Of a stretch of DNA of 64,000 bases, positions 20,626 through 58,300 are shown one piece after another. Source of the DNA: Trichoplax sp. H2 (lineage: Eukaryota); the NCBI GenBank assembly GCA_003344405.1, contig NOWV01000161.1, positions 62,001 through 126,000 of the forward strand. The letters are read 5' to 3'. Both the position numbers and the translations under genes were made by a program. A model generated the notes under the pieces. The model saw only the letters and a list, made by a program, of their open reading frames with translations. It did not search any database and was not told the origin of the DNA. Positions within the stretch are counted from its first letter, which is position 1. Each line of letters opens with the position of its first letter.

Positions 20626-23367
20626 TAACTGTAAAATTATAGATTATAGATAGTAATTTCGTAGACGTATCAAGGTAATTTAAAATTATAATGATAAGTA
20701 TAGCAATAACGGATTCAAATCAGTCAAGTATCATTGTAAAATAAATTTCTATGCTATTAGCAATCCATTCCTCTAAGTTCAATATCTATGTTATGTCTAT
20801 GTAGTTAAAAGTATTACAATGATAACAATCATATCGGATTCAAAATAGTAAAATCATAGACATAAAATATGCGAAATTGCTACCTATTTTGCAAAGTAAA
20901 TCGGTAATCAATGATGACATTTTTATCATATCCTTTCGCACGTAACTGTATTCCATCGATTATCAATAATGACTTATTTAAACAATTTATGAAGTCATAA
21001 ATATTGCAGAGTCAATATTCGCTATCAAGCCCTTTTAGGACTCATAGCATAGATAATGGAGTAGTTTCATTACTCTATTTTGACTGAAATGATGACAATA
21101 TTAATCTTCATACTGTTGAATCTAGACTCTACATGTCATGGTAACAAATCTTAATTAAGAAATATATGAAATCGTTTGTTATTTTTTTTGTATAGCTACC
21201 GAATCAAAATTTTCTACCCTTTTATAAGTAATTGTGCTAACCACTTCATTAAATTGTACTGCAATATTGGAAAATTTTTATTAACGTAAATTATTATCAT
21301 TAGAGCAGTGTAAAGACTGTATTATAAAATATCATTTATTATGTGCAATAAGCTTATTAAATAAAAACGCGATATTGGACTCTACCGATGACTATTTTAT
21401 CTTTTCCAATAAGCAAATTATCCTGTTCTTGATTGTAGTGAACCGTTAGACTAGATAACTGCTATGTATTTGTAGGATATTGAGCTACTTTCTAGCAGAA
21501 GAATGAACTCCATGCTAGCGTCAATTATTCATCAAGTCATTTCATTCATTTTATCGGTTAAATTGCCAACAAATTTTGATACCAATATTCATCTATGATA
21601 CTTTATATTTTCTACATTCTTCTTCTGTAATGAAGAGCATACCACTAAAATATAGTATATTTCAGCTATCTTTCAGTATAATAAAATTCTAGAGTCAATC
21701 TAACGTTCAAATACCGTCAAAACTACAAAAGTAATTCGTGATCAAAATCTTTGCCTAAAATATAACTGTTTTTACTCAGTTATTCCTTATCTAGCGTCTA
21801 CCTATCTCGATCTAGAATGAACAGCTTAGAATAGCTCTATAGCAGACTTTCCTTCTTCAATATTGTCACAGCTACATCTTCACTATGTTAAATTTAATGC
21901 ATCTGAAGGTATAAATCAACCTTAACTGTATACATGTACTGTAAGTGTGATGGTATCGAATTTAGCACTTCTAAAGGCATTGCTCAATCGGGAATGTGCC
22001 GTACAAATTACTCTCGCATATTCCAAAATAACACCAATGCTGGGGATAGATTAGGTCAAGAATAGAATAGAATTAAATTGAAACAGCTGTTATAATAACT
22101 GTTCAAATTAGATTGTTATCAGAAAGAATTTCAGGTACAATGACTACCTGAAGAATTCATCAGATCTGAAAAAAATTTATCTGCTTGAACTACTTGATAA
22201 ATTCTGGTTAGTTTTATCTCCTAGGATTACTATAAGCCTACATTTAACTTGAATTAAGCTAAAAGAAGATTCTGCACACTAATGGTTTGCATATAATGGA
22301 TAACCAGGAAACTGTTTGAGCCAGCAATTACAAAATTACCTGAAATTAATCACATTTTTAAGGTCTTTGAATATCTTTATTCTTCTTCGAGCCTAATAGT
22401 AATTATTTAGCGTACTATCAATTCCCGAAATACTTCAATCTAAAAGTGCAAAATTTATTATAGCTACAATACGATAAGTCGACCTAACAAATCGATTTAG
22501 TCTACACTTACAGTAATAAATAACAGCATTTTCAGCAAATATGTATATATATTGCTTTGTCGTGATATTACTTCGTCGAGAAGTTAAATTTCATTAAATC
22601 TAGATTTATCTTCGCAACAGTGATGAAAATACTCACTCTAATTAAAAACTAGCTTTGATAACCTTAGTATTTATGATTTCTTTAGTGATGCTATACTCTA
22701 GCATTGCATTTAGTTGTGAACTTTGTTAATAAGAATAGCCTAATTATATCTAAATATGAATAGTATTACTTCTTAACACTTTTTTAACCAGCATTGAATA
22801 TACGATATTGCAATTACAGGTAATTCTACCTTAAGATAATCAGTAAAAAAAACTATGAAATAACTTTTCAATCTTGGTGACTTAAACTAATAGTCAATAG
22901 AATAAATCTAAATTATTTAAACGTGATTCGATAATTTCAATATTTGTAGGTAGCCTATTATATCTATCTATTCTACAAATTATGCCTGAACAAGGAGAGT
23001 ATCACGGAGGACGTTCATCTTGAAATTATGAATGTATAAATCAATTATTTTCTTTGATCTAATGATGGATGTGAATTAAATCTCGAAGATTTTTATAACA
23101 TTAACTAGATTAGCCAGCTTTTAAGTTATGTTAACTATACTATAACTCCAATTCCATCAAATAAATCAAAAATATTATAAGCAGCATCCATAGACGAGAA
23201 TTAAAAGAATTTTAGCGTGTTACTAAAACAGATATCTTATCTTATAAAGTACTAATTTGCTTAACTAAGAATTATTTAAAGATGTTTTAAGCTAAACTAA
23301 GATTGATTTTTAACAGTCATAAAATTAGTAAGCAAACATATCTAAAAGTAGCCCAGCAGCATAGAAC

Positions 23368-26300
23368 TTAGATATGCATTTGTGATGGCGCTTGCTGCAT
23401 AACCTGAGCCGGCTGAGATGGAGCTTGTTGCTGCATAACTTGAACTGGTTGAGGAGTAGCATGTTGGCGCAAAACTTGCACTGGTTGAGGTGTGGTTTGC
23501 TGTTGCATAATTCGAACTGGTTGAGGTCTGGTTTGCTGTTGCATAATTCGAACCGGTTGAGGTGTTGTCTGCTGTCTTGGTTGCATAACTTGAGTTACTG
23601 GTGATAGCATCTGAGCGGGATTGCTACCTGTTGTAGCAATATATTGCGATTGCTGAGCGGGAATAACACCTTCTTGAACAGCTTGCTGTGGAGAAGCAAT
23701 AACGGTTCTAACGGGTTGGCCTTGAGGATAGCGATTAAATTGTGCTGGAGAATTGCGTTGAACCTGTTGCATAATACGTGGTTGAGCCTGAGCTGATGGA
23801 TTAATCGGCCTTGTAACTACCGAATAGGTTGGAGGAGGGTGCTGTTGAGCAGTTGATTGCTGATAGACTGGCGTTCCGATTGGAGTTACAGGCATTTGAC
23901 GGACAGGGCGTATAGCTGGTGAACTACCAGTTCTAACAGGTTGGACTATACGTCTTGGTGGTGAAGATGTTGCTACAACAGATTGCTGTTGGCTCTGATT
24001 TTGTTGGACAATCGGTGATGGACGCATCGTTATTGTCGATGGATGTGGATTTTGAGGTTGGATATAACGTATACTTGATTGTTGAACCGGTTTATGCGGA
24101 ACTGATGGTGGAACATATTCAATGATCTGATGATGATCAGCATAGTCTTCAGACTCATGATTGACTTCTTTTGGAACTACTGCAACTGGTTTTGGAAGAT
24201 CATCATGCTTCGATCTGAGTCTTTCATCAGGAGCTTCAACGTCCACTACATTGGATGGTGTCGGTAATCCTACTGTTAATACATAACGATAAAAAGGATA
24301 AGGATATAGTCTTAGTCTCAATTACTAGAAATCAGCTAATAAGCATCGAATCAATCTCTTGAATAGAAATATAATGCAACACTATGATAATCCTAAACAC
24401 ACCTTTATTCAATTTCCTAGGTGATATTTGATCCGGAGCAGTCTGAGGTCTAGAATCATCAGCTACAACCGCTGCACCTGCTACCACAGCGCTATCATCA
24501 GCTGCCTGAAGCAGACTGGAACTTGACTTTTTTTTCTTATTTCGTCTTTTCCTTTTCTTCTTCGATACCGATTTCGAAGCCACATCGCTATCAACAGTCT
24601 TAGTGACATCATTGCTTTGTTTAGCAGTTACATCCTCTTCAGTTTTGTTTTCTTCAAACTTAACTTTCTTTTCTACATCTTCAACATCATCCTTTTCGTC
24701 TTCATCTGCCAACTCTAATTTACTTTTAACAACACCAACTTGAGTATGATTGGAATCTTCATGTTCCTGCTTCAACTCGATTTCTTTAGGTTGATCATGA
24801 TATTCAGCAGCCCCTTCAACTGTTACAACTTCAGTTGCAACTTCTAACGCTTTGGGCTCTTCAACATCATTCTTGGCTTCTTCTGCTTTCGATTTTACCT
24901 CATTTAATTCGACAAATTCAGCTTGATCATCTTTTTCTGGAGGTGCATTATTCCTAAATGGTAAGTATAATAAATGAAAGTCAATTCATTCCTTGGTAAT
25001 TGGCAATCATTATCCAATATCATTAAGATATTGCCTCTACTAGTGATAAGATATTAAGCTATTGAGAGTATCGACTCATCAAACAAATGCCTACGTATAA
25101 GCAGTAGTTTTTTATATTTTGATTAAAAATAGATGGAAGAAAATGGCTATAGATGGTAAGAAATACTCAAGGCAGGATACATATGCCTGTAGGACTAAGC
25201 TAAAATTTTTTATCATATGTCAAAATAATCCTTGATTAATAGTAACACGAACTTAGGATTTTAAACTACTTACAGGCCTTCTTCGATATCCCGACTGGAT
25301 GATTTCTCTTCAATTAAACTATTTTAAAAATGAATAAGAGAATTAGATGGACAGAAATGGATAGAAATCATTTTGCTATGATAAACAACTCCGGTTGTAC
25401 CACGCTATCTCAACTTAAGATTGAAATTGAAATTCGAACTAGAGGAAATAATTTACGCAAGGTATTAAATTAATTATTCAATGATAGTTAAAAATAATTA
25501 TCAAGACAAACTTACTGTTTTTTGATATCTTCATTTGATGGTGCAACTTGTGATTTTTTCCTACAAAAATGAGATGGAAAATAGATAATTACATTCTAAG
25601 ATCAACCATTTCCATACTCAGATCATGGTTAAGATTAAGCGTGTATAGAGGTAGGAATAATCGATTCTTGAAACTTCATAACAAAAACTACAGTAAATTA
25701 CGTGTATAAAAGAAACTTACGCAACAGTGTGGTGATCAGCGTATTCATACTTCATGATTCGTAAAAATTTAGCGAATTTAATAGCCATGATAATGACTGG
25801 GATGAAGAAAAATTCGGAAATCCCAATAGAAAACCAATAGCTATTCTAAAATTGAATAAATAGGATCTATTATATATGAGGCAATCGATATTGGAGCAGT
25901 ATGTTAAGATGAAGCAAGAAGATATGTTTGAAAGCTAACTTACGAATCCATCTAATAATCGATGGCAACCCAATGTTGTAAGGCCATTCCATGCATTTCC
26001 AAGTAAACCGGTAGGACTAGCTACATTTACCAACTGTATAAGAGGAAGAGAAAAAGGTACAAGGTAAAGCATGATGCTGATAAAGGATGCAATCTTGATG
26101 ACAATATTAACTACTGCTATTAACGAAGAATATAGCTATCATTAATTTCATCATCTATCTATCCAAAGTGAGGTAATGACATAAGTCTGAAGATAGCTAG
26201 GAGGGAATTCTGTTTTTAAACTTCATGGACTACTGCCTTCTAAACGTATTGGATTGCATTAATATCTCTAGTCATGGACGATTATATTAATTCATCGGTA

Positions 26301-29300
26301 TTATTACTGTTCCTATTCTAAGAGTATTCTAGACTTTATCATCAGGACTACTGTAATATGGTTAACTTTTGCTATGATACAATTGCTAATTCTTCCTTAT
26401 CACATTCATATCAATATTCTAGACTATAACTTGATAACTATTTAAGATTTAATTATTTTAACAAGCTCAATTACCAATGACTTACAGTGTAATTAGCGTA
26501 ATTGTTGTATTGAATAGTGAAAGAGTTAATCTTGACTCTAGCGCTATTAACAGGCTGTGAAATAGAAGCATATACATATTAGAATGATGCATGAAAGAAC
26601 TGGTTTACTGTACGTGGTAACATATTTGATTATACTATAATTAATATTAATGATTTACGTACCTGATAAAATGTAATATTATTGCTAACTTTCAATCGTC
26701 TGGTTCCATCGTCAGCAGTTTGAATAGTATTATTAATTGTAGTCTGTGTGGAAAATATGAAGACAGCATTAATCATCTGGGAACGCATAGATAAAAAGAA
26801 CGGAGATCTTAATTTATTATATCTTAATATACCATTGATGTTTGTGAGATCGATTTCAGAGCTGTCAAATTAGCATTTAGTTGATTCTGCAAAAATTGAA
26901 TCCATTAAATATATTGGAATTTTATGATAATAGTAAATACTGATAATAAAATTACTAGTATTAAAATAATTAGCCATGCAATCTAGTTAATAATTAGAAG
27001 GATTACCTTATCTGGGATAATTTGGCTTTTAATTTTTGCGTCCATTGCTCGAAAGCTAGCAACGGCAAGATCGTATGGCTTTCTATTATTAAGCTAATAT
27101 AAGCAATGAAAGCCATCAGAATTTTTGTTACTTTATCAATTAAACATTGCTTATACGTTATACCTCAATAAATCAATTAGGGAGTTACATGTATTAGCTT
27201 ACCGGGACAGTAGTAAATGATTTGAGATAATCTTCTAGCTGTTGAGCTAATTGTAGCAAATCAACACCATTGGTCATTGGCTGCTGTAGCTGTTGCCATC
27301 GAAAATGAGACCGATCGTTAGATTAAACGTTATTAAAATTTATGTTGAATGCATATTCTCGACAATTAAGTAGGTGTTAGGATACTTACCACGTTTGAAA
27401 ATGATGCATAATTGATCATTTGTGTATCAATACGATAGCGTTGTAAGCTGCTACGAAGATTAGCTGGCATAACATTGACATTATTGACAAAGTCTACAGT
27501 TTTATTTAATTGGCCATTAAGAGACTTAATTTTCTAATCAAAGTCAAATTGGAAATAATGAATTACATCAGCACAAATGTGAAAACCCTTTCATCATCTA
27601 TCAGCCCATATTGCATTACATCATTGCTACTTACTGCTTGTAAAGTATCAAAAGCTACAGACCAATTATAGTAATCAACGATAGGCTGAAATGTCCTATA
27701 AAGTGAGCTGTTATGTTGGCAGTTCCTGTTATTAAAAATAAAGCATAAAGAATATTACATGCTTGCTCATAACAGATAGAGAGTAAGGATATTCAATAAT
27801 GGAATCAGGTATTAACTATTTCTGACTAGTCAATCAAGCATAGCTATAAAACGATTTTCAGTAGCCAAATAAAAACAAATCAAGATTGCTAATATTGCTC
27901 CCTAGAGATTGGAATCAATTTCATTCCAACTCTTAGATATGTAAAATTAAATCAAACAGACCTGACAATGGATGAAAATTTAACTGGTGCATTGCCATCT
28001 TTTAGCCATAAAACTCCCAATGGATATTCGCCATACGCAGTCTTATTATCAATAGTCTAGGATTCCATAGGAGAGCAATAGAATGATGGTTAGCTAGTAG
28101 AAGTAGTTTAGAATTGTGTTATATGTCTATAGCTTGAAATTAAATTATGGAACCTTCTCGAACGCTTCCAGAGAGACAATTCGTGGACAAATTAAGGCTG
28201 CATTAGAACCAGCAAATAACATGATAGCGGAAATGATGAAGAAGAAAAATCCCAAAATGATCAAGATGGATGCAGCTCTAGAATGTGCAAAATAGCATGT
28301 CAAAAAGTTAAGGTTAGAACTTAATAACCCTGGCGATAAAGAAGTTCGTTAGAATTTATTATAAATTATTAGATTCAATGTTTAAATAATTAACCATTAT
28401 ATTCAATGCTATATCTAAAGCTTAAAGTTTTATATAAGAGTATAAGAAAATAACATCATCGATTCCTTACGCCATTAACATATGTCCACCAGCATTGGAA
28501 GTTCGAGTTCTATTTCGTGAATCAACTCCTTTTTTATAACCAATGCAGCCTAATAGTACACCAATGTAGAGGAAGAGGGAGACAAGAATGATCACGGCTC
28601 CAAAGAAGATGAAAAAAATCATGCTAGAAATGCCAAAATTGACAAACATGAATAAATTTACGGGCTCTCATGTTTAGTACTTTATACAAATTCTATGTAT
28701 ATTAAAATTTTCTTTTAACTTACGAAGCATGATAAATACTAGTGGCAACACCATTAGGACCAATAGCTTCAATAACGTCTTTCTGAGTATCTTGGCTTAA
28801 TAGTGGATTAAACGTCTACACAAATCACGTAAAATGTTTTAATTGTTTAGCAGCATGGTTAAATTATTCTAAAAACAGCAATCATCTCAAATATATTATC
28901 TATAATTTAGCCTTCGTTCGATAGTGGCCCACTATTTATGAATAATAATCAGTTCAACTATATGCTCTATAATTTAGCATTAACTGGATATGAACTACTT
29001 TAATCATATAGTAATCATCTCAATAAATATTCTTCTATTTTATCTTTGCCATATTATCCATTCGATAGTGAACTACTTTTAGATAGACTTGACTTATAAA
29101 TATTTTGTCATTTAGCAATTGGTTAACAGCGAGCAACTGCTTATAAATGACACTCAACTAAAATACTGAACTTACATCATCGGTTATTTGAACAAAAAAG
29201 TTATATTGATTGGTAAAAGCTATTCTGGCGGTAGTAATCGCTTGATTAGCAACTGTAGAAAAGAAAGATCATGTTTAAAGTTATTTATGCATCGGATTTG

Positions 29301-32300
29301 GTTAAAAAATTCTAGTTGAATATTTACTAAATGCAGATAAATTAAGAGATACTTTGCAAAATAATTTCATTGTCATCGTAGCTTATAGTTAGTACAGATT
29401 CGGGTAGAATTATGAAGTAGATATGGTGGCTGTTTGACATTTTTAGACGGTCAATCGCGTAAAACAATTACTCGTATCATTTCTTACCTTGCTTAGTGTT
29501 AGTCATGGCAGAAGAAACTGAAGTTGTGACTAGATTGCAACCCTAAATTAATACCGTGAAGAAAGAATGGCATGAGTAAAAATGGCATAACTATAAAATA
29601 TTTTCCCAACCTATCTTACCTGAGCTGCTAGCGTTGCTAGTTTAGCAGCAATGAGTTGATCAATATCATTTTTTATATTGGTTAAATCTTGCATCTAGAA
29701 ATGAATGCAATTAAATGATTTATCGTGGAAACGTCTACATAAGATAGAACGCATCGTTCGCTTTAAAGTATACCTGAGAGAAATCTGCTGAAAATTGAGC
29801 TGTGTTAACATTGATTGTAAAATTAGAACAAGCATTGCCGCAAAATACGATAGAATTGGTAATGTTGGTTCTTGCATCCGCTAAGGTCTTGCTAATTTCT
29901 TGCTGTAAGCTGATCAATCGATTTCTTTGATGCATGATATTTCGTATGTCTGAACTAGTTTGGGCCATATCTAAAGGATTGGCACAATCATTTAAGAATT
30001 CAAGAAGCAAAGCGCGGCAATTTATAACGTGTTTTTGTCGATATTTATCATGATATACATCTTCCTATCTAGATCAATTAATTCAATAAATATACTACTG
30101 TTATTTATTTCCCCTTTTTTGTAGATAATTATCATGCTATACACTTTCCTATTTTGATTACTTAATTCAAGAAATGTACTAAAATTATTTACTCCACATT
30201 TTGGTAGGTATTCTTATGATCTCTGCGCGTACTAGAGTTATTACATGATTTGGTAGATATTTATCATCATCTATACTAACGTTATTTCACATTTTGCTAA
30301 ATATTTATCATCATCTATACCACAGTTATTTGACGTTTTGATAGATATTTATCATCATCTATACTAAAGTTATTCCACGTTTTAGTAGATATTTATCATG
30401 ATATACAGCGTCCTAACTCGATCATTTTCTAATCTACTTACTAATTTGAATATTCTTAACGTTATTGACAATGGTTTGTTCGTTAGAATGGCAAACAAAA
30501 TCGTTAATACTTGTAGGCAATCCTATAGATTTGATCCAATGTAATAGTAATAGTAAAATAGTTTTAAAAATAAAGAAAGCGAGTCATTTAGATGCTAGAA
30601 CGGCTATTTGTAAGCGCGTACTATCAGCTGTATTACAAGTTAATCAATTAAATCTATATACCATTAACTCTGACAGAGACTTGATCCAGCATGAAATTCG
30701 ATTTAGTAACCACAATGTCTTGAATTTGCTATATTGTAAAATATTCAATTTGTATAGTAAACCAATTAAATAAGCGGATTAGCATATGAAATGATAGAAT
30801 CAATTCTCTAATACTATATTCACATGATAGGCAATTGTAGGCTAAATTTTGAAAGCGATATTACAAATGAGCGTCAATAATGTGCGGTAATTACTAAAAT
30901 AGATGATGACAATTTTAGCGCCAAATAGATAGAACAGCAACATCCATAAATATCATCTGTCTCTACCTATACTAAATTTGCGGCATAAAATTGACATTAC
31001 TGTAGTGATTGAAATCGTTGCCAGGTCATATGGCATTCTATCGAGTAAATCACTCTTATATCACTGGAATAATCAGTCAATTCTACTAACATTTTTTCCT
31101 TTATCGACAAAACTTTGTACATCTGTTCTTGCTTTTTGAACTGTTGGTAGACCAGTGCTATAAGCATAGAGCAATTCGCTAACAGCAAAGATGGAGCAAA
31201 TCCCTCCGGCTCTGGCAAAGGAAATCGGAAAAGAATTTAGTATCAGACAACTTGTTTATAGCATTTTGTTTTAATGGCTTTAATGTAGGAATTAGAAAAA
31301 GCTAAAAAAAATTCTATCGCTAGCTATGAGCCACTGGCAGTTTTGGTTAGACGTTAATATATAGGAAGTTTTATATACCAGTAGAATAAAAATAGATGGG
31401 GCAATAGATCAGCTTATTAGTCTTGAACTGCTCAATGTAATTATTTAACATCGATAGCAAAGATAGATCGAATGAGTGCATCAGAGATTGCGATTTATCA
31501 AATGGGAAAATAAGAGAAACTTGATATAGAGTCAGGTGTTTGCAGAAGAAAATAATTCAAAAAAAAGACCAAGTGTCTATCTAATATCTTATTGCAACAG
31601 TCAGTCAGAAACCAACAGTTCTTTCGAAATGACTATGAACAAGATCCTTGAATGCGTCTTGTACAAATGGGATCATCATGGTAAAGAGGTATTTAGCTTA
31701 CTCTGCATGGTTAAGAATTAGGGGGTAAAAGGAGAAATGAATAAACTGATGCAGATGGAATAAATAGAGATGATAATAAGTTACTTTATTAAGGAAGAAT
31801 CTAGGAATAAGAACAGTAGAAGAATAAGCTGTATTGGTTAGAAAATGAACTACTATTTGCTTGATATCCTCATTCAACAGTCAGGAAGAAACAAGCAGTC
31901 CCTTGGATATGGCTGAGAACGATATCCTCATTACGAGTTTCTACCCATCACAAGTAAAAGGGAAGATGGAAATGACATTCATTTACTTACAAGATGAAGG
32001 TAGCAAATATAACCAACCAAAAGGAATAACAAAAACGCGTATATCTTTCAGTTTTAGGGGGTCTTTGAACCAATTCGCCACCACAATTTCCTTGACATCG
32101 GCAAATACAGAAAATGAGGCCGACAATTGGCAAAACGATACCGATGATTATTCCTAGAATGGCCATAGCCCAAAATGGTGCCTCGTATTCTGCAGCCTAG
32201 TGCATAGAAAACAATTTGCATTAATTCATTTTACATCACTTGGAATTTTCCTTCATCGACTACATTTATATCCGTTGCCTTGACTGGAGATTGAATGCAA

Positions 32301-34358
32301 TAAGTTATACAAGGATACTTTCTTTGCTTACCTGAGCTACTAATAAAGTAATAGTATCGCGGTTAAAGGTAAAACCAGTAGCACTACCAGTGGAAGGAAT
32401 AACTTTGGCACCTTTCAGGACGCTGTTGATTTGAGCTAATCATTAAGAATCAAGATTGAAAGAATGTTTAAAAGCGAAACGTTAAACATGGATTCAGTTC
32501 TAGTGATGATGAATAATTATAATAAAGTTTTTTTCGTTAGATTATAAAGTAGCTGATGATGGATTAAGAAGAAGGAAGATAGATCTTTGATATAGTTTAA
32601 AGGAAGAGGTAGTCAAGAAAGTTGTTCTTTAATACTATTATCTAATTAAAAACAAAAACAAAAGGTAGCCATAGAAAGTCTAACTGAATTACTCTTCTAT
32701 CCTTCACTTTTAGATAGTAAATTGATTGAAAGTGATATTTTATCAATTTTAATAATAACTTGTCCTTCGAATCAATATTGAAAGTAAAATGGCTTCATTT
32801 TCAATTTGAGTTCAAGTAATGTTCAACAGCTCCAGCTGGTAAATTAGAGTAATTTAAAATATTTATACTTAAATTCTTTCCTAAACATTAAGAGTAATTG
32901 TACAAAAATCAGCTTCGGATGATCACAACATAGTCGTCATTGCTTGAAAATTATTTATAATTTGCTACTACTCCGTTGGTTAAGACGCGTAAACTACTCT
33001 TCTTCAATATCAGATTATCGATAAAATAAAACTATCCATCTCTTTCTACCATATCGTTGTCATATTGAAATTTTAAACGCAGTAGTCTTTCCCATTTACG
33101 AGCTACATTTTTCTTTAATTGACATTGACTAATTGACTATTCTTTCTCCCTGTCGAGTTATCAATAAACAAAAACATCCATCTTCCTCTACAATATCACT
33201 GATATCTTACAATTTTAAAAACGGACGGGTTCGGTACTTTTATCGAGCTACAGTATTCCTACTTGAACTCTTTCCTAAAGGTTAAAACTACGTTCCAAAA
33301 AAAATCAGCTTGAGAACACTGCGCTAGCATCTCGTTGTAATGACTTGAAGAATCTCCACCATGGAGTACTACTCCATTGACTAATTGACTACAGTGCTCG
33401 TCCTCCCTTTCAATAAAGTAAAATAAAATGTCCATCTTCATGGACGATATCATATTGCAATTTTTAACGCGTAGTTTTCCTTATTTCCGCGCTACACTAT
33501 TCCTACTTAAACTCTTTCCTAAACGTTAAAACTGCTTATCCCAAAAATTAGCTTTAGAACATTGTACTAACATTTCATTGTAATCACTGAAAGAATCTCG
33601 ATGGGCTAATTGGCCATAGTACTTATCCCTCCAAGTTATCAATAAAATAAAATAATATCTTCATGGACGATATTGCTGTCATATTACAATTTTAAACGCG
33701 CAGTTTTCCCTATTTCCTAGCTACAGTATTCCTACTTAAACTCTTTCCTAAACGTTAAAATTACGTAGCAAAAAATCAGCTGGAGAACACTGTACTGTAC
33801 TATGTCATACTCTAACTTAAGAATCGCCATAGACTAATCAACTAAGGTATAGTACTCATCCTCCGTATCAAGTTAGCAATAAAATAAAATATTCTTCTCC
33901 CTTGAAGATATCACTGATATGTTACAATTTTAAAGTCAGTAACGTTTTTCCTATTTCCGCAGTCTTTGTTAGAAAGAAAGCCGAAAGTGATTATCCAACA
34001 TTTTCCTCTATGTAAAACTCAATTATCGCCATTATTTTTTTCTATTAAGAGAGAGATTGTTCTTAGCTATCATTAGAATCGATTGTATCAAGCACTTACC
34101 GTAAGGTAAATCGTTAGGTTGAAGAAAGAAAATGAAATCTTTGACCATTTTATAAAGATAGACGGTAACGACTTCCACTATAGGTGTAGTATCAGGATTA
34201 CTTTGAGGAGTTGGCATTGTTGGCAATTCTGCCCAAACGATTACACCATTCGGTTGGATATAATTTTGTGTCTGAGCTTGAACGACATAGTTGTAGGTAG
34301 AAGAGAGAAGTAGAAAGTACAAGACACCTGAGATAGCCTTAGAAAGATTAACAGCCAT
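23368..34358 (-). CDS. Prominin-family pentaspan glycoprotein, paralog A, with very long C-terminal tail
   Basis: Signal peptide MAVNLSKAISGVLYFLLL. TM1 is followed by the Cys-rich FCICRCQGNCGG, and TM3/4 by RTRTSNAGGHMLMA. TM5 reads NSYWFSIG...IPVIIMAIKFAKFLRIM. Four further exons (~25515-25561, ~25274-25318, 24403-24953, 23368-24272) splice on in phase. Confidence 0.9.
23395..23600 (-). repeat. Coding 36-bp minisatellite (12-aa PQPVRIMQQQTT-type repeat, ~5-6 copies)
   Basis: Repeating + strand unit of the type TGTTGCATAATTCGAACTGGTTGAGGTCTGGTTTGC. Protein reads QQTTPQPVRIMQ QQTRPQPVRIMQ QQTTPQPVQVLR QHATPQPVQVMQ. Confidence 0.9.
30237..30412. repeat. 44-bp minisatellite, 4 copies, in a prominin A intron
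   Basis: GTTATT....TTTTG.TAGATATTTATCATCATCTATAC units start at 30237, 30281, 30325 and 30369. Degenerate relatives lie near 30030 and 30183. Confidence 0.9.
32860..33960. repeat. Degenerate tandem array (~230-245-bp unit, 4-5 copies) in prominin A intron 1
   Basis: Anchor CCTACTT(A/G)AACTCTTTCCTAAA.GTTAAAA at ~33258, 33502 and 33732, degenerate at ~32865. A second anchor CAATAAA.TAAAAT recurs at ~33162, 33411, 33640 and 33877. Confidence 0.85.
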
Positions 34359-37979: not shown

Positions 37980-38525
37980 GGTTTGCATGCTTGATTATAT
38001 ATACATACTCGTATGTATATAAGCCTATTAAATATAATATAATAGCTAAATGTCATATCGATCATATAAATTGACTTTATTGACTATTAATGTAGGAATA
38101 GAATCACAGCAATGATGATATGCAAGATGGCATATACAATATTTAATCACACCTAAGCAGTACGTGAATATAAGGCATTCATGCTTGATTATAGCTGAAT
38201 CCCATCTCGATCAGATAAATTGACACCATTGACTATTATTGCAGGAATAAAATTACGGTGATGACGATATGTACTTGAGCTTATAGAGTAGATTTTAATC
38301 ATACCTAAACAATACACAGATACGAAGCTTTCATACTTGATTATAGCTGTATCATATCTCGATCAAACAAATTGATACTATTGACTATTATTGCAGCAAT
38401 GAAATCACAACTATGATAGTATTTACGAGAGCACATACAAGAGATTTAAATATGCCTAAGTGAAATACGGGCGTAAGATGTCAAGGCTTAATTGTAGCTG
38501 AATGTCATTTCCATCAGAGAAATTA
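37980..38525. repeat. Degenerate tandem array (~150-bp unit, 3+ copies)
   Basis: CTTGATTATAGCTG at ~38184 and 38336, degenerate at ~38487. AAATTGA...ATTGACTATTA.TG.AG.AAT at ~38068, 38217 and 38369. Confidence 0.8.
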
Positions 38526-45387: not shown

Positions 45388-48300
45388 ATGTCCAAATTTC
45401 AAGTCGGGATTTTAACCTTCTTGGTTTTGGCTATCCACACGGTATACGGACAAAATACGACAACCGTCAATAATGGCGTCATTACTTTTAGCCAACTACC
45501 AACCATTGGGACTACTCAATCCAATCCCAATGATTATGTACCAGAATCCAATTTAGCCACCTTATATGCTATGGCAAAAGGCTTTACCAATGCCCTCATT
45601 CCTGGTCATCTACCCTATAGTAAGTACTTAATGCTAAAAAAAGTGACTTTGCCTATTTCCATCGCTGATCCGTGATCGATTTGGACACCACTTGCTGTCT
45701 ACAGTACATTTACCCAACAATTTCATTTCCGACAATTTCCGTCAATCCTTTACCCTTCTCGTGTTTGTAAACCTTCATCAATTCGGTCAAGAAGATCAGA
45801 TATGGCCCGTTATTTCTACAGTGACTAACTGACTAACTGTTCCACTACAGTAGCACAGTTTAAGTATAACCATCTACTTTATAATGTATTTTTTTCATTC
45901 TTTTTCCTATCCTCCTATTCCCGTTAATCAAGAGGATAGTGTAATTAACCAAAACTTTCATCTTTTAATTGACAACAACGGCACTTTAAATAATAATGCG
46001 GGGCATCTCTCTATTTCTCTCCTCTTCACGTTGACTATCCTTCATACCCGTTAAACTCAGAAGTATCAAGAGAAATAAAGATGCGATAGTCAATTTCATT
46101 TTTAAAACCCTACCCATAACCAAAATAGTGTCGTGAACGAAAGTTTTTATCCTTTTGATCCACAACCACGGCACTTTAAATAAATAATATTCCGGGATAT
46201 CTCTCCATTTCTCTCGTCTTCATTTTGTCTATCGGTCGCGCCTGTTCAACTTAGAGATACCAAGAGAGAGATGAAGATGCGATGGTCAATTCTAATTTTT
46301 CTTTCCTGCAAAATCAACTACGCACTTTAATTTCAAAATAATTTGCAAGGGGAAATACCAAAGTAGAGCTCGCTTCAAAATATGAATGCAGGGTTATCCT
46401 CGTTCTATTCTCTATCAGCAATCAATTTCACGGATTTTTGTAAACATAAAAATAAGCGTTCCATGTGGAATAATACTTTCTTAACTGCCTTTCCAAATTA
46501 ACAACGAATACCTCTAGGCCCTATAGCAATAATTAATTGTCATCCTTACGATATGAAATGTTTATTATCTTACGTTGGGCATATTTTATCCTCCTTCCAT
46601 TCGCTTTCCATCCCGTAGATTATTGTTAACATAAAAAATGGACCTTTAAAAGCAGAAATATACTTTCTAAGCTGCCTTTCAAAGTTAACAACCATGGCTT
46701 AGAGCAATAAATTGCCGTCGTTACTATGATGAGAGATGTTCAATATCTTACTTTGAACATTTTTTATCCTCTTTCCATCAACCTTCTATTCTGTAGATAT
46801 TCGTCAATATTAATTTGATCATTAAAAGTAGAAAAAACACTTTTTAAGCTACCTTTTAAAGATAATGACTCTGATTTACCGCAAGAATTGGACGTAGTTT
46901 ATATCACTGGAGATGTTTACCATCGTATCAAGATATCTTTTCTCCTCTTTCCGTTAGCCTTTACCTTCCTGTGTTCCATAGCCTTAAATTGATCATTTCA
47001 ATGTAGAATAGCCTTTCTTGGCCATCACTACAGAAATGGATTATTTAAAGGATAACGTTTCTCCTTTTTCCGTTAGCTTTCATTATGGTGGGATTCGTTG
47101 ACATTAATTTCACCATTCAATACAGAAAAAGATTTCCTTGGCTAGCCTTGATAGTAAATATTAATGGCTTATTCTAACACTTTACTGTCGTTAATATCAC
47201 TCCAAATGGTTCGTATTTCATGAACACCTTTCCTTCTGTCTCTGCTAGACTGCAATTTCACGTAGATTCATTAACATCAAATGCATCTCTAAATACCCTA
47301 AATTTTCTTGCCTGTCTTTCCAAGTTGACAACAATGGTCCGTTCCAATAGTAAGTTTACCTTAGTTAATATCCACGGCAATGTCCATTAACGCCTGTGCG
47401 ATCAATTTTTGCTAACTTTTTGATCCGCTTCGTAAGCATAAACCTGGAAAGGGACACGTTATTAGGCAAATGAATCTGAATTTCCTTTTTACCGTAATCG
47501 TGAACCAACCTAGACCGAACGCAAGAGCCATGATTTATTACGATATCATATTACCGATAAAACCCTAGAGTGCTATAAATAATTTTAATAGCAACAATCA
47601 AAATTTAGTTCCGATCGACTGCCAAAAATTAAACATCAAAAATCCATCCTGTCCTATTGAGTTAACCCTTTGACAACACTTTACCCATTCTGCAAGCGTT
47701 TTCCTCTCTTTTACTACGTCCAAAACCTACCGTAGTCTATACGTAATGGATTCTATCGATAGAATCTATAATTTCTACTAATTTCAAGAGGACACTTATT
47801 TCATTTAAATTTACCTACTTCAAATTAAGCTCATAAACCAATTGAATTCATTATTTAGTCGAATTGCATTCTGTATTCAATCCAACATCTTCACTCAATG
47901 ATTTTCTCTTCTATTTAGCGTTCATGGTCGGTATCCTCAGCAATTTACAAACTCCTAATGGCATCTTAACCTATTTGACGACAAATTATCATTCGGTAAG
48001 ACATGGATTCAAATGAAATTCAATGGCAATATTGATTCCTGTATATTTAAGCGTAACTTGTAGTTCTTTATTTTTACTTGTAAACCCTTACCCAAATGAA
48101 ATGGATTCCAATATAATCAACAACAATATTGCCATAGTTAACCTCAAAAGAAGTTGGTTTACTCGCTTGTGTGGCTATCGGACTCCTAATTGGTGTTCTT
48201 ATGCCTATTGTTGGATTAATATTTTGTTGCTGTCGAATGTGTGGTAAATGTGGTGGTGCCATGGTTCAAACCCATAAAAAGAGATCTCATTGCTACTGCT

Positions 48301-51300
48301 ATACCATCTTCTTGGCCATTTTTGCTTCTATTGCCTTGTAAGTATTAGCTCAAAATGATCCATATTTATGGATTTACTGGACATAACATCAACCCGATGA
48401 CTTTATACTCGATCAAGATAATAAATAGTATTTATTGAGTATAATTACTTTTGGTGATCCATTAGGGCCGGAGGAATACTCAATATTCTCACTGATAAAC
48501 ATATCATGGCCACCGTTCCATATGTTAATGGTGTCGCTCAAGAAGCGATAAGTGATCTCAACCGATGGAAAAACACAGCTACCGCGGTAAGACTCAATTA
48601 CCTTTTGCAGCAGTAAACTACGTGAATAAACCCTTTTCTCGTCCAATCCCCATTTCTTATAGTTATAGATGATTAGCTTAGGGTAAAAGAATGATTAACA
48701 CATATTCTATATATTGTTTTGTATTCGACGCATATACGCTCGCATAACCACAATATAGCAAATTGAAACCTTAGCTGGACCTCAATTAAACTATACAGCG
48801 GATCTTGTCAAAGCTGACTTAGGAGATGCAGGTACCAATAGAATAAATAATTATCCTATCAGAAAGTAAATGCCATTTTCATCATAATAATGATATCCAG
48901 TTTTGTATCCCTTAAATATGGATTTTATCTGTTATAATTTCAAATTTAGCCGTCAGAAGTGAATTAGGTGCACCCCTCCAAGTCGCTGTGGAACCTCATG
49001 CAGATTCTTCTATCGTAACTGTTACTAATATATCGAAGAGTAAGTTTATGTTTCCATTTTTACTAGTTTATGATGTATCCAAGACACTCCGTGATTGATA
49101 AATATGAACGATTGATGTATTCAGTTTTATTGTGTAATAAAAATTGCAATAATTTAAACTCTATCATCTCTCATCTACAACTGTAAAAAATTGAATTTCG
49201 CTAAAGGATAATCCAACAAACTTATGCGCTTACTTTCATTTGCAGCTGTTAACGATACCGCTGACGAACTCAATGCCATCAACGCTAGGAGGACTCAACT
49301 TGTAGCATTGCAAACTTCATTAACTAATGAAGTCAACAAGGCAAAGACTGATTTAAATTCGGCCATAAGTGATTGCAATACACTTCCAGGCAGTCCCTGC
49401 AGTGACATCGATACCTCAGTAATCAACGTCAATGTTGATTATGGAACGGTACGTATACCAACATTAAAAGTAAATCGATGATGATTTCCAGATGAATGAA
49501 TATCGATAAAATGAAATGATTTCAGTTACCAAGTATCGATAGTCAAATCGCAGAAGTCCAGAAAGTAAGAAATCTTGGCCTAACAAATATGGCATCACAG
49601 GTACGGAATCATATCTTATGCGCCAAACGCAATAATTTACTCTTCTATTAGCTTGTATCATTGCCGATTTGTTTCAAGATACCATTAAAAATTTATCTAT
49701 CAAATTTTCCTATATTGAAGGAAAATATTTTGTACAATCCTATACAAACAATCATTTTTTTCATGCTATACCGTGCTAGGCTCAAAGTGAAATTAGGAAT
49801 TTGCCTGACACAGTGGTAACACAAACAAGCGCCACTCGAAGCAGTATGTTATAACTGATTTATTGCATCATGACAAGACTAGAGTTGCTCACTTTTTCCT
49901 AGATAGCAATAAATAGGCTGCTCTATCTCTCTAAGGAATTAAGTTATAACCTGATCACTTTATATTGAATCAATTTAGGTGTTGTCACTAGTGTTAATAC
50001 ACTACAATCGCAAGCTGGATCTCAAGTTGCAACCATCACTCAACCTATTAAAAATGTAAGGATAGGGTTAGCGTTTATTTTATGAAGCACAGAGATAGAT
50101 CGGTGATCCGATAATTTACTATTGAATTATTCCAAATCGAATGACTGTAGATTAGCATGCTGAAGCATTGATAAATTACCGTACTTTTATATACTTCATG
50201 CTACTTATAATATCAAGTATTATTGTAAGATATTAATAGGTAATTGTACTTTGCCATACGGTACTTACTCGTACAGTGTGAATTTAAACGAATGAAATAT
50301 TTTAATATCTTTTGTTGATTTACCAGCCATAAAATACAGTTCAAAGCTAATTTTTTTGTACGGTATATTATATTCCAGATTGATTTTAGCACTTTTTATA
50401 CTCCAATCGCTAATGCTCTGAATGGCATTACCAATTCCGATGCCTATAAATACGCGTAAGTGCAATTTCGGGATTGAATTTAAATTGATTATACATATAT
50501 CCTTAGTCATCAAACCTTATAATAGATCATTCTTATTTGTAATAGCATGAAATTATACTTGAAATTAAGTAGTAAAATGATCAGTAATCAAGCTGTTACT
50601 ATTAACGACATTTGAGCATAAAACTATGTCATCGATCACTTTCATGTCAATTTTATCAGCCATTAATATTCTTTATTTTTATCTGTAATACTTAGGGAAT
50701 ACGGCTTAAATGGGTTCGCTGGACTTTTAATCTTACAAGCTGGTTTGATTATGTTGGCATTGCTTTTGGGTGGATTATCTTACAAGGATGATGTACCTTC
50801 AATAAAGCGATCAACTACATCCAATATCGCTGGCTATCTCCTTATGGCGTAAGTAATAAAAAATTACAGTTTAAGTTAAATAAAATGATTACACATACTC
50901 TGGCGAAAATAAAGATAGAGTAGGTTAGCAAATTGATTTCAACCACTTATATAGCAGCATTTTTGTCATGGTATTACAAATCTTGCTTCAAGTTTATGAA
51001 AAGCACATTGAATGACATGGAATTCAATAATTTTTAACTTTAGAGCTGCTGGCTTGATTATCATATTTTCGTTCCTGTATTGCTTTGTTGCCATTACCTT
51101 ATTGACAATTGGAGCTAATACAGAGAAAGCCTGTCAAGGTCTTCGTGATAATTCATTCTTTTCTCAGGTTGGAATTCTTAATCGTGATGATATAAAGTAT
51201 AGTAATGACTAAATATTAAAATACTCCAATATTGAAAATTTCTATTCCTTCTTTTACATTAGGTTGCCGACGCTCGTTTACCTGGCGGCAAAACTGTTTT

Positions 51301-54243
51301 AGAAAGCTTAATTAATCCTTCTAATGCTAATAATCCAACCACTCAATTATTCTCTGGTATCTCCGCTGCAGGACTTATATCGTAAGTTCACTTTTAATCG
51401 TGTTACATTCTAACGATATTAATTTACCTCCAAGCGCTAATATATTCCTTTTGTAAGAACAAAAGTCATTTATGTTTCAATATGATAGTTAAATGCTATA
51501 TGATCTCATACCGCTCTAATAAATTCAAATTAGGATAACGATAAATATATAATTTAATACATGCATGAGTAGCGATGATCCATATTCAATTTACTCACTT
51601 ATAAAATCACTACAACATCCGTGATGTATACCTCATATGTATACACGCACTTCTTCAAGTATTCAGTCTAACTACTTAAAAACATTAGTGGAACTTCATA
51701 GCTAGCTAGCCACATCTCGTAAAGATATTTACTTTTCAAGTTTTGCTACCTAATTTCGCTCCATTATTAAATTAATCATCGATAAGTAACGCGCTATATC
51801 ATTTTATACCTTCTACAGTGCATGCCAGCAGAACAGAGCATTGTACACTGCTCTAAATTTATCCAAAAGTGCTAATATTGCCAATATTGTTGAAGGTGGT
51901 TTGGTTAATACCGTAAGTGCTGAATAGGAAATTTTACTGAAAGTAAAATAACTTTTTAACATTTTGCAATTTCTTTTATTGCCTTAAATTTATTTTCTTC
52001 CCCTGTTATATATTTCCTTTTTGCTGTTCAACTTATGTTACTATTTTCTTATGCAACAGACCCTGAATAGCGCTGAAACTCAGCTTAATTCTATTACCAT
52101 CGACTATTCAAAATTAAATGTTGCTGATAACTCGACATTGAATAATTTGGACACTCTAAAATCGCAAATTGACGCAATCAGCATATCCAATTATGATAGC
52201 TTGGTAATAACAAAATACCGAATTGATATTATTCCCTCGATCTAACTTTAAAATATAGTAATTCTGTCTGTGAATAATATAGTATTGTCCTAGAAGTTAT
52301 TATAGAACAGTAAAAAAATGCAAAATTAGAAAATCTTAAAACCCTGTTTTAACTATTTTCTAATTTTATCCCATTACTAGATCAATAAAGCAAAAGTAAC
52401 ATTCAACATATCAGACTATGCGGATACCCTGACTGCAAAAGCCGAACAAATTCGGCAAGTTCCTCATCCTGTAAGTTCTTTATTTTGATCAAGAATCTGA
52501 TACAAGTATACACTTGTATGATAGTTTAAGAACAATCCTTCAGCGATCAGTAACCATTAGTATAAAATTCATCTTTAATACTAACATATAGAATTATGCT
52601 TTAATTGAAGTGCTTCTTTTCTAATAATTAAAAATAGACGGCAGCTTCTGTTGCAACTAAACTAGATTCAGTTGCGATTCAACTCAACACTACCATACCT
52701 AATACCATCATTGAACCGATCAATTCCAATTTGGTAATTATTGTAAAATCGAAATTAACTAAAATACGGATTATAACAAATAATAATAGTACAGTTATAT
52801 ATATATCACACAACTATTGTAGACTGCCATGAATACCTCTCTTCAATTATTGGTAACAAATAAAGCTAAATTATCGGTAAGTCACGTTACAATGATGCAT
52901 CTATTGTAGTGCCATAAAAATTTTGCTCCTAATAGTAGCTGATATTAACTATTAATTAATAATAATAAACATCTTCCAGACTCAAATTACCAGTGTCAAA
53001 GATGCTGTTATTAACTGGAATAGCTATGTCGCTAATACTTTGCCTAATACAGTCGCTGGAGTAAGTACAAACATTTCATACCTATGTAACTTTCGTAGTT
53101 CTTGGAATAACGCTCTACTTACCGGTTACCGTAGGTGATTAATACTTTCAAGAACAAGCTTTTTGGCTACGTTAGACAGTATTCGTCTCATTTAAGCAGT
53201 GAGGTAAGCAAGAAAATAGCCGTTTACTATGATACTTCAGTTACTATATTATTGGCAATGGTTCTTCAGAAAAATAAACTAGTTTACTTAACTACTAACT
53301 AGCTCTATTAAAACAAGTTACTAAATCAGTACTTTGTACATTTTGTATCAACAGATGAAAAATAGTGTTGGACGATGTCAACCAGTCTACAACGCTTACG
53401 CATCTTTGGCTTTGAAAGCAGCTTGTGGTTACGGTATTGATGGTCTGGTAAGTCATAGTTATTGTCCTATAGTATTCTATATTAACAAAATGAGGCCGAG
53501 TCTAAATCTCTTGTCTTATTATAACTACCCGTATAACTTATTAAATTTTAATTAATCGCAATTAATTATCGGTTATAGAGTGGTTTCTGGTTCGCTCTAT
53601 GCATGTGCGTTGGATGTTTTATACCCAACTGTATCTTATCTATTAAATTGGCGAAATACTTCAGAAGGATGAAGACAGAATTTTTCACTTCCAAAAATGC
53701 AAAACAAATGTTGTAAGTTTCACAAAAATAACTATAATTGGAATCATTACATTTGTTGTTCTATATCAGATCACTTTAGTCATAACTTTAGATAAACTTA
53801 TGGAAACCTTTATTTTTATTAATAGTGAAAATAGCCCTAACAAGGATAACGTTCAACTCAAAAAGTAAGATATTTTCCCCCATATATTAATTAATGCAGT
53901 AAATACACTCATCATTTAATTATAAATAAGGCTAAAATTAGAAGCTTTATTATCTATAGTATTAATTATAAATTATCCATATATGGATAGTTTATTATTT
54001 ACTTATTAAAACTGAGCATCTTTCAACTACGTTATGCTCAGATTAAAAAATTTTAAATTAATGTATAACAACGATTAAATATCTCTATGATTGATTAGCT
54101 ATAAAGGCAATAAGGTTGGACCCTCAGGACCCGTTGCTGAAAAAGTCCCACCACCGCCTGGATACAAAGCTAACGGTCATCGTGGTCCACCACGCCCGCC
54201 AATGAAACGAAGTTCTGGTCACAAAGTTCCTATCGCTTACTAA
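45388..54243 (+). CDS. Prominin-family pentaspan glycoprotein, paralog B
   Basis: Signal peptide MSKFQVGILTFLVLAIHTVYG. Later motifs are LYAMAKGFTNALIPGHLPY, GLIFCCCRMCGKCGG, KRSTTSNIAGYLLMA, GANTEKACQ, VGRCQPVYNAY and SGFWFALCMCVGCFIPNCILSIKLAKYFRRM. The last exon ends HKVPIAY*. Confidence 0.92.
45950..46335. repeat. ~190-bp direct duplication (2 copies plus a start) in prominin B intron 1
   Basis: CAAC.ACGGCACTTTAAATAA...ATCTCTC.ATTTCTCTC.TCTTCA...AAGATGCGAT.GTCAATT at ~45973 and ~46163, partial at ~46315. Confidence 0.8.
46400..47350. repeat. Highly degenerate tandem array (~178-bp unit, ~5-6 copies) in prominin B intron 1
   Basis: TTT(A/C)TCCTC(C/T)TTCC-type motif at ~46586, 46764, 46940 and 47059. 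An AGAAA..TACTTT...GCTGCCTTT-type block recurs at ~46465, 46652, 46830, 47003 and 47122. Confidence 0.7.
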
Positions 54244-55368: not shown

Positions 55369-58300
55369 TCAAGATATCCTCGGCACATTATTATTTAGTC
55401 GAACATACAAATTCTTTATTACGTTCTGTAGTATGCAATTTTAAAGCATAAAGAGTTTTATCCAATTAACGCTTACAAAAATTTCAATCATCTACAACTT
55501 GTGAGTAGTGGTATTTAGGTAATTATACCATTTTAGGCTTTTCCTGTAATTAAAAGCATGCAACCAATAAATGCAAAATTGTAGAAAAAAGACCTTAAGT
55601 GATCAGACAATTTACAAAATTTTAAATTTTTATTGTGAATTCTATGACTTACCGCGTGCATATAACCAGTATCATAATATGCATCCCTATGAAAAATATG
55701 AAGGAAAAGTTTATTCTCGGGTTTACTACTACTTTGATTTGACTACTATAATCTCACTTACATAGCGTTTTTGTCATAGGGATGCTCTTTTTCCATACGT
55801 CTATAATATTTCGCCAGCTTTACTCCAAATATAATATTTGGTATGAAACAAATGGCGCATATTCCCACAGCACACCATACACCGTTCTACAATTGAGATA
55901 TAAATTTTATGTGACATGTACCAATAATGTTACAACAAAATAAAATTTAACATATCGTAAGCAAATCGGATTAATTGATTGAACCATTTCCAAAAATCAC
56001 ATACTATTGCATCTTGCAAGAAATCACAGACGACGTTTACTGCATTGTCGTACACATTACGTAGAACAAAGCATTTGCCTACGTCGTTCGAAATCTACAC
56101 GATAGAAATAAAATAGTATCACTTCTAACAATTATAATAAATCAAAATTAACAAAGTGCATACCTATTAATTTATTTATGTTAAAAATAATACTGATCCT
56201 AAAATAACTACCTTGTTTTTAACATAGTTAGCATATTCTTTGGCTTCGTTACCGATTTGGGTTGCGATAGTTTTTACAAGCTAAATATTTCAAAATTGGA
56301 TAGCATAAATTTGGTAAATAAATGTAAGATATTCAACACTAATTACGATATACTGCAACCAATCATTGTGATTTAAATGTGTTATACTGTACTTACGTTC
56401 TTAGCATCCGTATGAAAGCTGGCTTTTATGTAATTATCGGCAACTTTAGCTCGATCTAATAATACCCTTATATCACTCTATATATAGATGAATGTAATCA
56501 AACTTTAAAACAAGGCAGTATTTACTCTACGAAGTTTTGTCATCATTACGCTTGAATCTATAATATAATATCTATTTAATTGTTGCAAGAAATTTTGCTT
56601 AATACAATACTAACCCTTAGAGCCATAATTTCTGTTTCTAGTTTGTTGACATTTGTTTGTAATGAAGTCTAATTATGATCAATAAAGTAATTAAAAGACT
56701 TAGGCGAAAATATATAGATAAGCTAGACTGTTCACAACTATAATACTCGTATCATAATTTAGTACCTTCAATTGATTAATGGCAGCAACCTTCCCGGAAT
56801 TTAAGATACGAAGTTCTTGTGCAACTTGTCGAACATCATTAGCAACGCTCTGAATAAAAGTACCAGCACAACAATTTTAATCAATTATGTAAGCTAACCA
56901 TCCTTATTTTGTAAACATTGTATACGGTTAACTGCCAATATACAAGCAGTAGAGCTATTATTCTGATACAATAGCAAGCTAACTACTAAACTTACGGTGG
57001 AATTTGTATCAGCTTCTAGTCTATTAGCGTAATCCACTAAATTGATCGAAGTAGTTCTTATCGACAGCTACAAATAGCAAAAAAAGAAGCCGAAACAATG
57101 AGGTCACAAAATCGTTGACTTTAATTACGTTGAAGTTTCCCAAACAAATAACATTTAAAGCTTACTATAGCGTCAATTTCAGTAGTATTAATTTTAGTAG
57201 CATTATTATTCAGACTCTCTTGCAGAGTTCGATTATTCTGACTACTCAGAAGTGTTATATTAGGCGTTGGAATGACTATTTTGTCCACTTCAGCAGTTAT
57301 ATTCGGAAGGAGCTGTAAAAAAGATTTTAAAAAATTTACGACAATAAATTAAACTACCTGAAAAGTATCTATCCGTTATGTAAGTTATCTTTAAAATTCT
57401 AAAATTTTACCCTTTGAATATCTAATTCTTTGGTAATGTTAAAGCGATAGGCTAAAAGAAATGTTGAATATAGCGAGTTATCCTTTTGGCATTCACTGTT
57501 AATTTGCAACGATAAGAAAAAAGAAATCAGATATATATAAAAATAAAGTTAATTATAATCAGATTAAAAGGCATACTTCAGGATTCTGGTAGCGGTCAGA
57601 GGAATAGTATCGTTTTGTAATAAAAATCCAGCGATGGGATAGCCACCCCAAACAGTTTCATTATCAATTACCTGTAATTTATAGCAAAAAACTAGTTAGT
57701 GATAGCATGTATATGGTGATAAAGGCATGAATAAAACACTGTAGTATTATCCTATGTGCTATAACTAGCTAGTAAATGATTCAATGGCAAGCAGAATCGA
57801 ACCTGTCTGTAGATACTACCATTCTTGATTGGGTGGCAAGCAGCCCGCTGCATATTACCACCAATCATGAAGAAAGATGCGTTAATGAACAGGTAAAAGA
57901 ATGCGAATATAAACATTAGCCCTACGCTCCTGTAACATGAGAATGATAAATTCTTAATTGAAACTAATGTAAAAATAAAAATTATTTGCTGGATAAATAT
58001 ATTAACAACTTACGCCATTAAGAAGATGCCGCCAGCATTTGACATTAAACCGCGTTCAGTCGGTGCAGCATCGGCCTTACGTCCAAGTATTCCAAAGAAT
58101 AATCCAAGGATAATCAAACCAGGGAATAGCATAAGGATACCGCTGTAAACCATATATCCAGCTACCCTGTGGAGTCAACACAATAATTGTGATATGCATA
58201 AATTGTCGGTATTTAATTAAAATACAAATCAATCGGGAGTACTGTACTACAGACACGGTTAAGCGGTATAAGAATTTAGTTAACCTTTGTCTTAATATTT

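Follow-up and report, generated by a model that had tools for sequence, protein, structure and literature searches.

A tandem-array prominin of Trichoplax with a 534-residue C-terminal tail and short motifs that recur in invertebrate prominins

One of the three tandem prominin genes of Trichoplax, referred to here as paralog A, encodes a real and expressed protein with a tail of 534 aa (counted from K826, after the fifth transmembrane segment, TM5), which is the longest in the sample of prominins compared and roughly tenfold the usual length. It represents an extreme member of a known family and not a new kind of protein. Within its tail lies a PPxY motif, overlooked by the original prediction made from the same DNA, which we consider the best lead to a mechanism. 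All three genes are found within the 64,000-nucleotide stretch of Trichoplax sp. H2 DNA that was analysed (the window), and a genome-wide profile search with Pfam PF05478 placed all seven of its matches inside them:

23368..34358, minus strand: prominin paralog A, 27 coding exons, 1359 aa (P0001 = RDD38784.1)
45388..54243, plus strand: prominin paralog B, modelled tail of 83 aa with NKVG and then PPPPGY (tail exons modelled from splice signals, without read support)
55523..63397, minus strand: prominin paralog C, P0011-like, 854 aa, with a tail of 37 aa and no PPxY

The deposited protein RDD38784.1 (named Prominin-1-A, Trichoplax sp. H2) maps exactly onto the 27 exons of paralog A, the exact mapping covering 1357 of its 1359 residues and the remaining two being split codons. 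Its sequence cluster has one further member, T. adhaerens XP_002114778.1 (P0002, TRIADDRAFT_58605), likewise of 1359 aa, and the long model is hence already in the databases, where it stands without comment. Two single-exon fragments (P0133 and P0156), 63–70% identical to core exons of paralog A, probably derive from a more distant placozoan. The spacer between the divergently transcribed A and B genes holds tandem repeats at 36032-36633, 38042-38459, 42977-43297 and 43331-44247, with periods of 244, 152, 141 and 251 bp, respectively, and shorter ones (84 and 44 bp) were seen in the paralog A intron at 30032-30399. Elsewhere in the window, an exon-like frame at 16880-17221 (plus strand) resembles a cilia-associated CFAP206-type protein, and another at 3316-3636 (plus strand) an RRM protein.

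By every sequence criterion paralog A is predicted to be a five-pass prominin. The Pfam profile matched residues 67-830 with 286.5 bits (cut-off 34.3), covering profile positions 38-797 of 799, while the Tweety profile (PF04906) gave no match on the same protein at E values up to 1. Hydropathy peaks at 1-19, 124-159, 174-207, 436-476, 488-527 and 805-834, judged by the Kyte-Doolittle scale only, correspond to a signal peptide and five transmembrane segments in a 2+2+1 arrangement. The two inner loops are short, and the outer loops span about 230 and 280 aa, with two N-glycosylation sequons in the first and eight in the second; these sizes fall short of the '>300' stated in the methods of PMC11405016 and come close to its textual '~280'. 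Four cysteines (Cys 151, 153, 155 and 159) cluster at the boundary of TM1 and the first inner loop, and W807, which precedes TM5, aligns with a Trp in 148 of 149 relatives and is the presumed equivalent of human W795. Paralog A has in common with the prominin family (human PROM1/CD133 and PROM2, fly Prominin and Prominin-like) the 2+2+1 topology, two large glycosylated outer loops, the Cys cluster after TM1, and the Trp before TM5 followed by a KLAKY-like motif. It is approximately 23–24% identical to fish prominin-1. Its 27 coding exons compare with 28 exons in PROM1 (PMC13651184), and both genes have several small tail exons. The difference lies in size, since rodent and primate prominins measure 804–865 aa in all (PMC10967083) and the tail of paralog A alone measures 534 aa.

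The tail is encoded by four exons downstream of the TM5 exon, with the following features, all on the minus strand:

25721..25845: TM5 exon, with the family Trp W807 and the juxtamembrane motif KFAKFLR
25516..25560: first 45-nt tail exon, containing the VxPx-like QVAP (25539-25550, residue 849)
25274..25318: second 45-nt tail exon, from splice signals and RNA contigs
24403..24953: third tail exon, with an acidic E/V/K/D segment, KVKF, the K/R run, SSSS and an A/V/D linker
24515..24562: polybasic run of 12 residues, 11 of them K/R (24527-24562; residue 1006), then SSSS
24268..24409: NKVG motif at residue 1057, split by the last intron (24403^24272)
23368..24272: last exon, in which about 50 residues of mixed composition precede about 250 aa rich in Q/P/V, ending in QMHI and a stop
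23824..23838: PPPTY at residues 1204-1208, a WW-domain ligand motif of the PPxY type
23392..23575: 36-bp (12-aa) tandem repeat, about 5 copies (4.8 over 23392-23565)
22381..23367: 3' untranslated region, with AATAAA at 22459 and 22381

All four tail introns are of the GT-AG type, and the frame is kept (phases 2, 2, 2 and 1) from the TM5 exon to the stop codon. No stop-free frame in the window is longer than that of the last exon (317 codons), and GC content by codon position is 0.60/0.31/0.25 and 0.66/0.45/0.25 in the two long tail exons, compared with 0.27–0.29 in introns. Together with the spliced junctions described below, this indicates that the open tail frame exceeds chance. Counted from the membrane, the tail starts with 50 juxtamembrane residues and a 130-aa acidic block; the K/R run with SSSS comes next, and a linker of 94 aa leads on to a Q/P/V block of 248 aa. 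The acidic segment (876-1005) contains 19% E, 14% V, 13% K and 11% D with a net charge of -22, and the Q/P segment (1112-1359) 23% Q, 17% P and 11% V, with scarce aromatics (Y 2%, F under 1%). No tail segment reaches transmembrane strength on the Kyte-Doolittle scale, none exceeding 1.3. Disorder is suggested by FoldIndex, for which seven of ten tail windows were clearly negative or near zero, and by single-sequence AlphaFold2 of the last exon alone, which returned a mean pLDDT of 47.5 with no strands and no fold, weak evidence given that the method scores folded orphans low as well. The tail further holds 13 S/T-P sites, and KVKF in the acidic block (24656-24667, minus strand) fits the PP1-docking RVxF pattern, as did 7% of shuffles. 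This layout bears out what had been predicted of a tail of about 530 aa on four in-phase exons, of its acidic E/D/K/V region, of the polybasic run directly followed by SSSS, and of the 12-aa repeats and QMHI-stop end; the predicted ~300-aa Q/P/V region stood as the length of the last exon, of which only about 250 aa are Q/P-rich.

Transcript support was assessed in contigs from four sequencing runs of four studies, one recorded as RNA and three guessed to be so, these being four of the 20 runs, among 23 listed, in which the stretch was partly present. All four tail junctions, as well as joints upstream of TM5, were spliced in all four runs (CT..AC ends), so that transcripts do not end before 24953 as they might have. 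In run X7, contig 24 (3264 nt) holds both long tail exons, and its depth of 197.9 is unchanged to the joint at 30728; it joins the Q/P exon to the prominin core, which places that exon in the same gene. RNA contigs extend into the 3' untranslated region to at least 22600. In one of the four runs, X4, the depth of the tail-exon contig (23400-24950) was 9–20 times that of upstream joints, a measure unsuited to ranking transcript parts. A short isoform through retention of the intron at 24954-25273, with a stop after about 50 aa, was considered and rejected, as the unspliced depth of 6–7 against a spliced depth of 90–198 resembles that of other introns.

For comparison with relatives, the core served as a phmmer query; of 422 representatives with E values up to 0.001, the best 150 were used; removal of two sequences under 400 aa and four without an aligned TM5, and addition of five, gave a survey set of 149 that excludes P0001 and P0002, leans towards sequences near the query and holds one isoform per cluster. 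Among these 149 (from the best 150 of 422), the median tail was 52 aa and the maximum 294 aa, in Glandiceps (311 aa in its isoform X1), with 35 tails of at least 100 aa, four of at least 200 aa and none of at least 300 aa. The earlier statement that characterised prominins have tails of tens of residues therefore agrees with the median but is overstated, given the 35 longer ones. Long tails among 20 proteins looked up belonged to hemichordates, echinoderms, a priapulid and an insect, while eight named non-bilaterian or unicellular relatives had tails of 41–88 aa (corals 56 and 66, Hydra 70, sponges 41, 58 and 88, Capsaspora 69, Pigoraptor 58), and long tails were thus not common among those sampled. 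Tail length also varies between isoforms elsewhere, from 153 to 311 aa in Glandiceps and from 55 to 234 aa in a sea urchin.

The database models with tails of 150–311 aa (Glandiceps XP_077991895/6, Saccoglossus, Ptychodera, Strongylocentrotus, Acanthaster, Priapulus and Anabrus) mostly carry PPxY, several of them with a K/R run before it and P/Q/Y-rich ends. They reach at most 58% of the paralog A tail, their K/R run lies near the membrane and not 180 residues away, and neither a 130-aa acidic block nor 12-aa repeats were noted in them, unlike in paralog A. The proposal of a novel prominin architecture was consequently too strong, since hemichordates, echinoderms, a priapulid and a large insect-containing clade also have tails of 100–311 aa with a K/R run and a proline-rich, PPxY-containing part. 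In the FastTree phylogeny, from which B is absent, A groups with C (support 0.96), which, with the short tails of B and C, makes the great length specific to one placozoan paralog. The long-tailed invertebrate proteins are not the sister group of A in this tree, and the length probably arose separately. There is precedent for the long-tailed body plan in the sister family TTYH, whose Drosophila member Tweety has the same five-pass 2+2+1 layout and carries 520 additional hydrophilic residues in short repeats at its C terminus; as in paralog A, this long extension is lineage-specific, and no function is assigned to it in the review (PMC8273234). Tweety differs from prominins in its shorter outer loops and in having no equivalent of W795 (PMC11405016), and its comparison with paralog A is one of descriptions.

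Searches for relatives of the tail itself returned little. The acidic exon, run against longer proteins, found P0001 alone (1 of 3597 candidates), and the whole tail, run against shorter proteins, found no relative among 7998 scored, a weak result because low complexity crowds the candidates. The ESM Atlas gave no usable match to the tail, the repeat region matched only itself in its own genome, and two metagenome scans found no relative. Evidence that the long tail is conserved comes only from a pair of Trichoplax models that are almost identical: the T. adhaerens protein and that of the window, both 1359 aa, differ by seven substitutions and no indel, with five substitutions in the 534 tail residues against two in the 825 of the core (Fisher p 0.12).

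A clearer signal came from short motifs across the family. PPxY was present in 46 of the 149 other tails, compared with a shuffle mean of 7.2 (maximum 18), and in 33 of the 35 tails of at least 100 aa (4.8 expected). Kinship inflates such counts, 28 of the 46 PPxY tails belonging to one clade; outside it the motif was still found in 18 of 107 tails against 3.1 expected. It also occurs in the named coral, Hydra and Capsaspora proteins, while four named fish proteins lack it. K/R runs (6 K/R in 8) were found in 12 of the 35 long tails (0.3 in shuffles), 17–45 residues from the membrane. Two further patterns, both chosen after seeing the data, were N[KR][VI][AGS] in 18 and [KRQ]V[AS]P in 10 of the 149 tails, each against 0.8 expected. 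The latter is similar to VxPx, known as a ciliary signal in rhodopsin and polycystins (PMC7973215), a likeness that we treat as a lead only. Several prominin tails end in NKVAPA, NKIAPA or NKVAPF, likewise similar to VxPx, and 52 of the 149 end in Y, F or W (17.1 expected). Not enriched in the 149 tails, observed against expected, were RVxF (4 and 5.0), LPxY (1 and 3.6), YPxL (9 and 6.2), P[ST]AP (4 and 0.9, shuffle maximum 5) and class II PDZ-type ends (10 and 6.3).

Paralog A carries QVAP (849), the K/R run (1006), NKVG (1057) and PPPTY (1204). Taken alone, each motif in A lies within chance (1.5–23%), with PPxY in 11–14%, the NKV type in 5–6% and the K/R run in 1.5–10% of shuffles, while the NKV type and PPxY came together in 0.5–0.7%. 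In paralog B, NKVG and PPxY lie 12 residues apart in the same order as in A, which is consistent with, though not proof of, an ancestral B-like tail having been stretched by insertion.

The reading we favour, tentatively and at a little under even confidence, is that the tail may be a disordered, membrane-tethered docking arm whose recruitment of a Nedd4-type ligase serves vesicle or endosomal sorting, likely in a gland-cell setting. After the placozoan tandem duplication, the tail of A would have been stretched approximately sixfold relative to that of B. By analogy with the family, the core would sit on curved apical membrane, such as microvilli and cilia, and shed vesicles, with the tail acting as a flexible tether. 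The putative K/R membrane patch could bind the anionic inner leaflet, an interaction that phosphorylation of the adjoining four Ser could switch off, and PPPTY would dock the WW domains of a C2-WW-HECT ligase of the Nedd4/WWP1 type. Such a ligase could then ubiquitinate the Lys-rich acidic segment (13% Lys) as putative acceptor, and ubiquitinated A would enter ESCRT-dependent vesicle or endosomal sorting, as NEDD4 directs human CD133. The docking step draws on four points: PPxY binds WW domains of Nedd4-type ligases; C2/WW/HECT ligase genes have been catalogued in two placozoans; human CD133 receives a single ubiquitin at K848 from NEDD4, which marks it for TSG101 and vesicle sorting (review PMC13651184); and Nedd4-2 regulates TTYH2/3 (review PMC8273234).

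The likely site of A would be secretory, absorptive gland cells of the ventral epithelium, and that of B ordinary ventral epithelium. Each of the three paralogs has orthologs in four placozoans (PMC10580291 suppl. 4). In that study, A orthologs belong to the 'gland' module of H23 (0.671) and to an unlabelled H2 module (0.599) that has many gene names in common with it, with similar genes such as DMBT1, mucin-4, cubilin and tetraspanins; the Hoilungia ortholog belongs to a peptidergic-nu module (0.514), and none is listed there for T. adhaerens (PMC10580291). These modules have moderate scores and are mutually discordant, which counts against the gland-cell reading. In all four species B orthologs belong to modules of ventral or pan-epithelial type, and C orthologs to a fibre module in H23 and a peptidergic-kappa module in Hoilungia (PMC10580291). 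Digestive gland cells have cilia and microvilli and an absorptive function (PMC12013895). Whatever their role, the motifs account for a few dozen residues and not for the length of 534 aa.

The main rival takes up this last point, proposing that the tail is mostly neutral bloat, gained as low-complexity sequence by slippage and exonisation in a tolerant tail, of which only a few short motifs would matter, the length itself being without function. This is possible, though we lean clearly away from it. Low complexity, recent 36-bp repeats and the lack of homologs in our searches agree with it, as do the greater number of substitutions in the tail and the highly variable, alternatively spliced tails elsewhere. 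It is harder to reconcile with approximately 480 codons that stay open across two long exons, with their codon-position GC signature, in a genome of 30% GC, with the absence of indels between the two Trichoplax models, and with charge so sharply blocked (acidic, basic, then uncharged Q/P) that the tail looks organised.

Less probable, and in our view unlikely, is a cortical scaffold or condensate in which Q/P repeats and charge blocks gather prominin into clusters connected to actin or apical polarity proteins, the terminal MHI serving as a class II PDZ ligand. The predicted disorder and the 13 S/T-P sites would suit such a role; PDZ ligands are found at the ends of some CD133 splice forms (PMC10967083), and a LIN7 PDZ gene shares the H2 module of the A ortholog (PMC10580291). 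On the other hand, the disorder call is weak for the reason given above, the family shows no enrichment of class II-type ends, and the Q/P region, though Q-rich, is Pro-rich and has few aromatic residues, a scarcity that speaks against a strong condensate driver; the condensate-forming domain originally proposed found no clear support.

It is very improbable that the tail is released by cleavage, or arises from its own internal transcript, and works in the nucleus with the K/R run as localisation signal. The run does match a classical NLS, and tail depth was higher in run X4, but the uniform X7 contig joins tail and core, a tail-only product would start at the first Met of the two long exons and hence miss the K/R run, which is encoded upstream of that Met, and the near-membrane position of the runs in relatives fits membrane binding better; an NLS patch, as once suggested, is without support for a five-pass membrane protein. 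That the gene model is an artefact, the Q/P exon belonging to another gene or being unspliced to prominin, is scarcely credible and already largely refuted by the in-frame junctions in all runs and the single-depth X7 contig, the sole point in its favour being that contigs are not single molecules.

Beyond the docking-tail reading lies a broader and rather doubtful possibility, namely that an old tail code (PPxY, NKV[AG]P/VxPx-like and often a K/R run), reaching back to a unicellular animal relative and absent from the sampled fish, may give invertebrate prominins a Nedd4/ESCRT and possibly ciliary handle. Paralog A would have made of it a charge-blocked gland-cell scaffold, in parallel with fly Tweety, and each paralog would owe its cell type and its fate (vesicle shedding or uptake) to its tail length and motif set. 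Reviews state that prominin sequences show no function-explaining motif (PMC10967083), and the terms PPxY and WW domain were absent from the CD133 reviews searched for them. No mention of PPxY in prominin tails was found in literature including PMC10967083, PMC11776279 and PMC11405016, most subscription papers being outside the search; at the level of titles and abstracts, VxPx or intrinsic disorder in prominin tails was not treated in the matches. Likewise no paper on placozoan prominins was found, which does not prove absence, as the search excluded most subscription papers, bioRxiv supplements and the figure supplements of PMC11405016.

Microvilli, cilia and photoreceptor discs owe their shape to prominins, which also shed vesicles. 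Much of the interest of the finding comes from the family-wide motif signal rather than from the length of the paralog A tail; should that length prove neutral, what is left is just a record for the family, in a gene model that had been deposited before. The motif set enriched across invertebrate tails offers a testable link to the NEDD4–TSG101 sorting of CD133, and three tandem placozoan paralogs, with tails of 37, 83 and 534 aa and different cell-type modules, provide a natural comparison of what the tail contributes.
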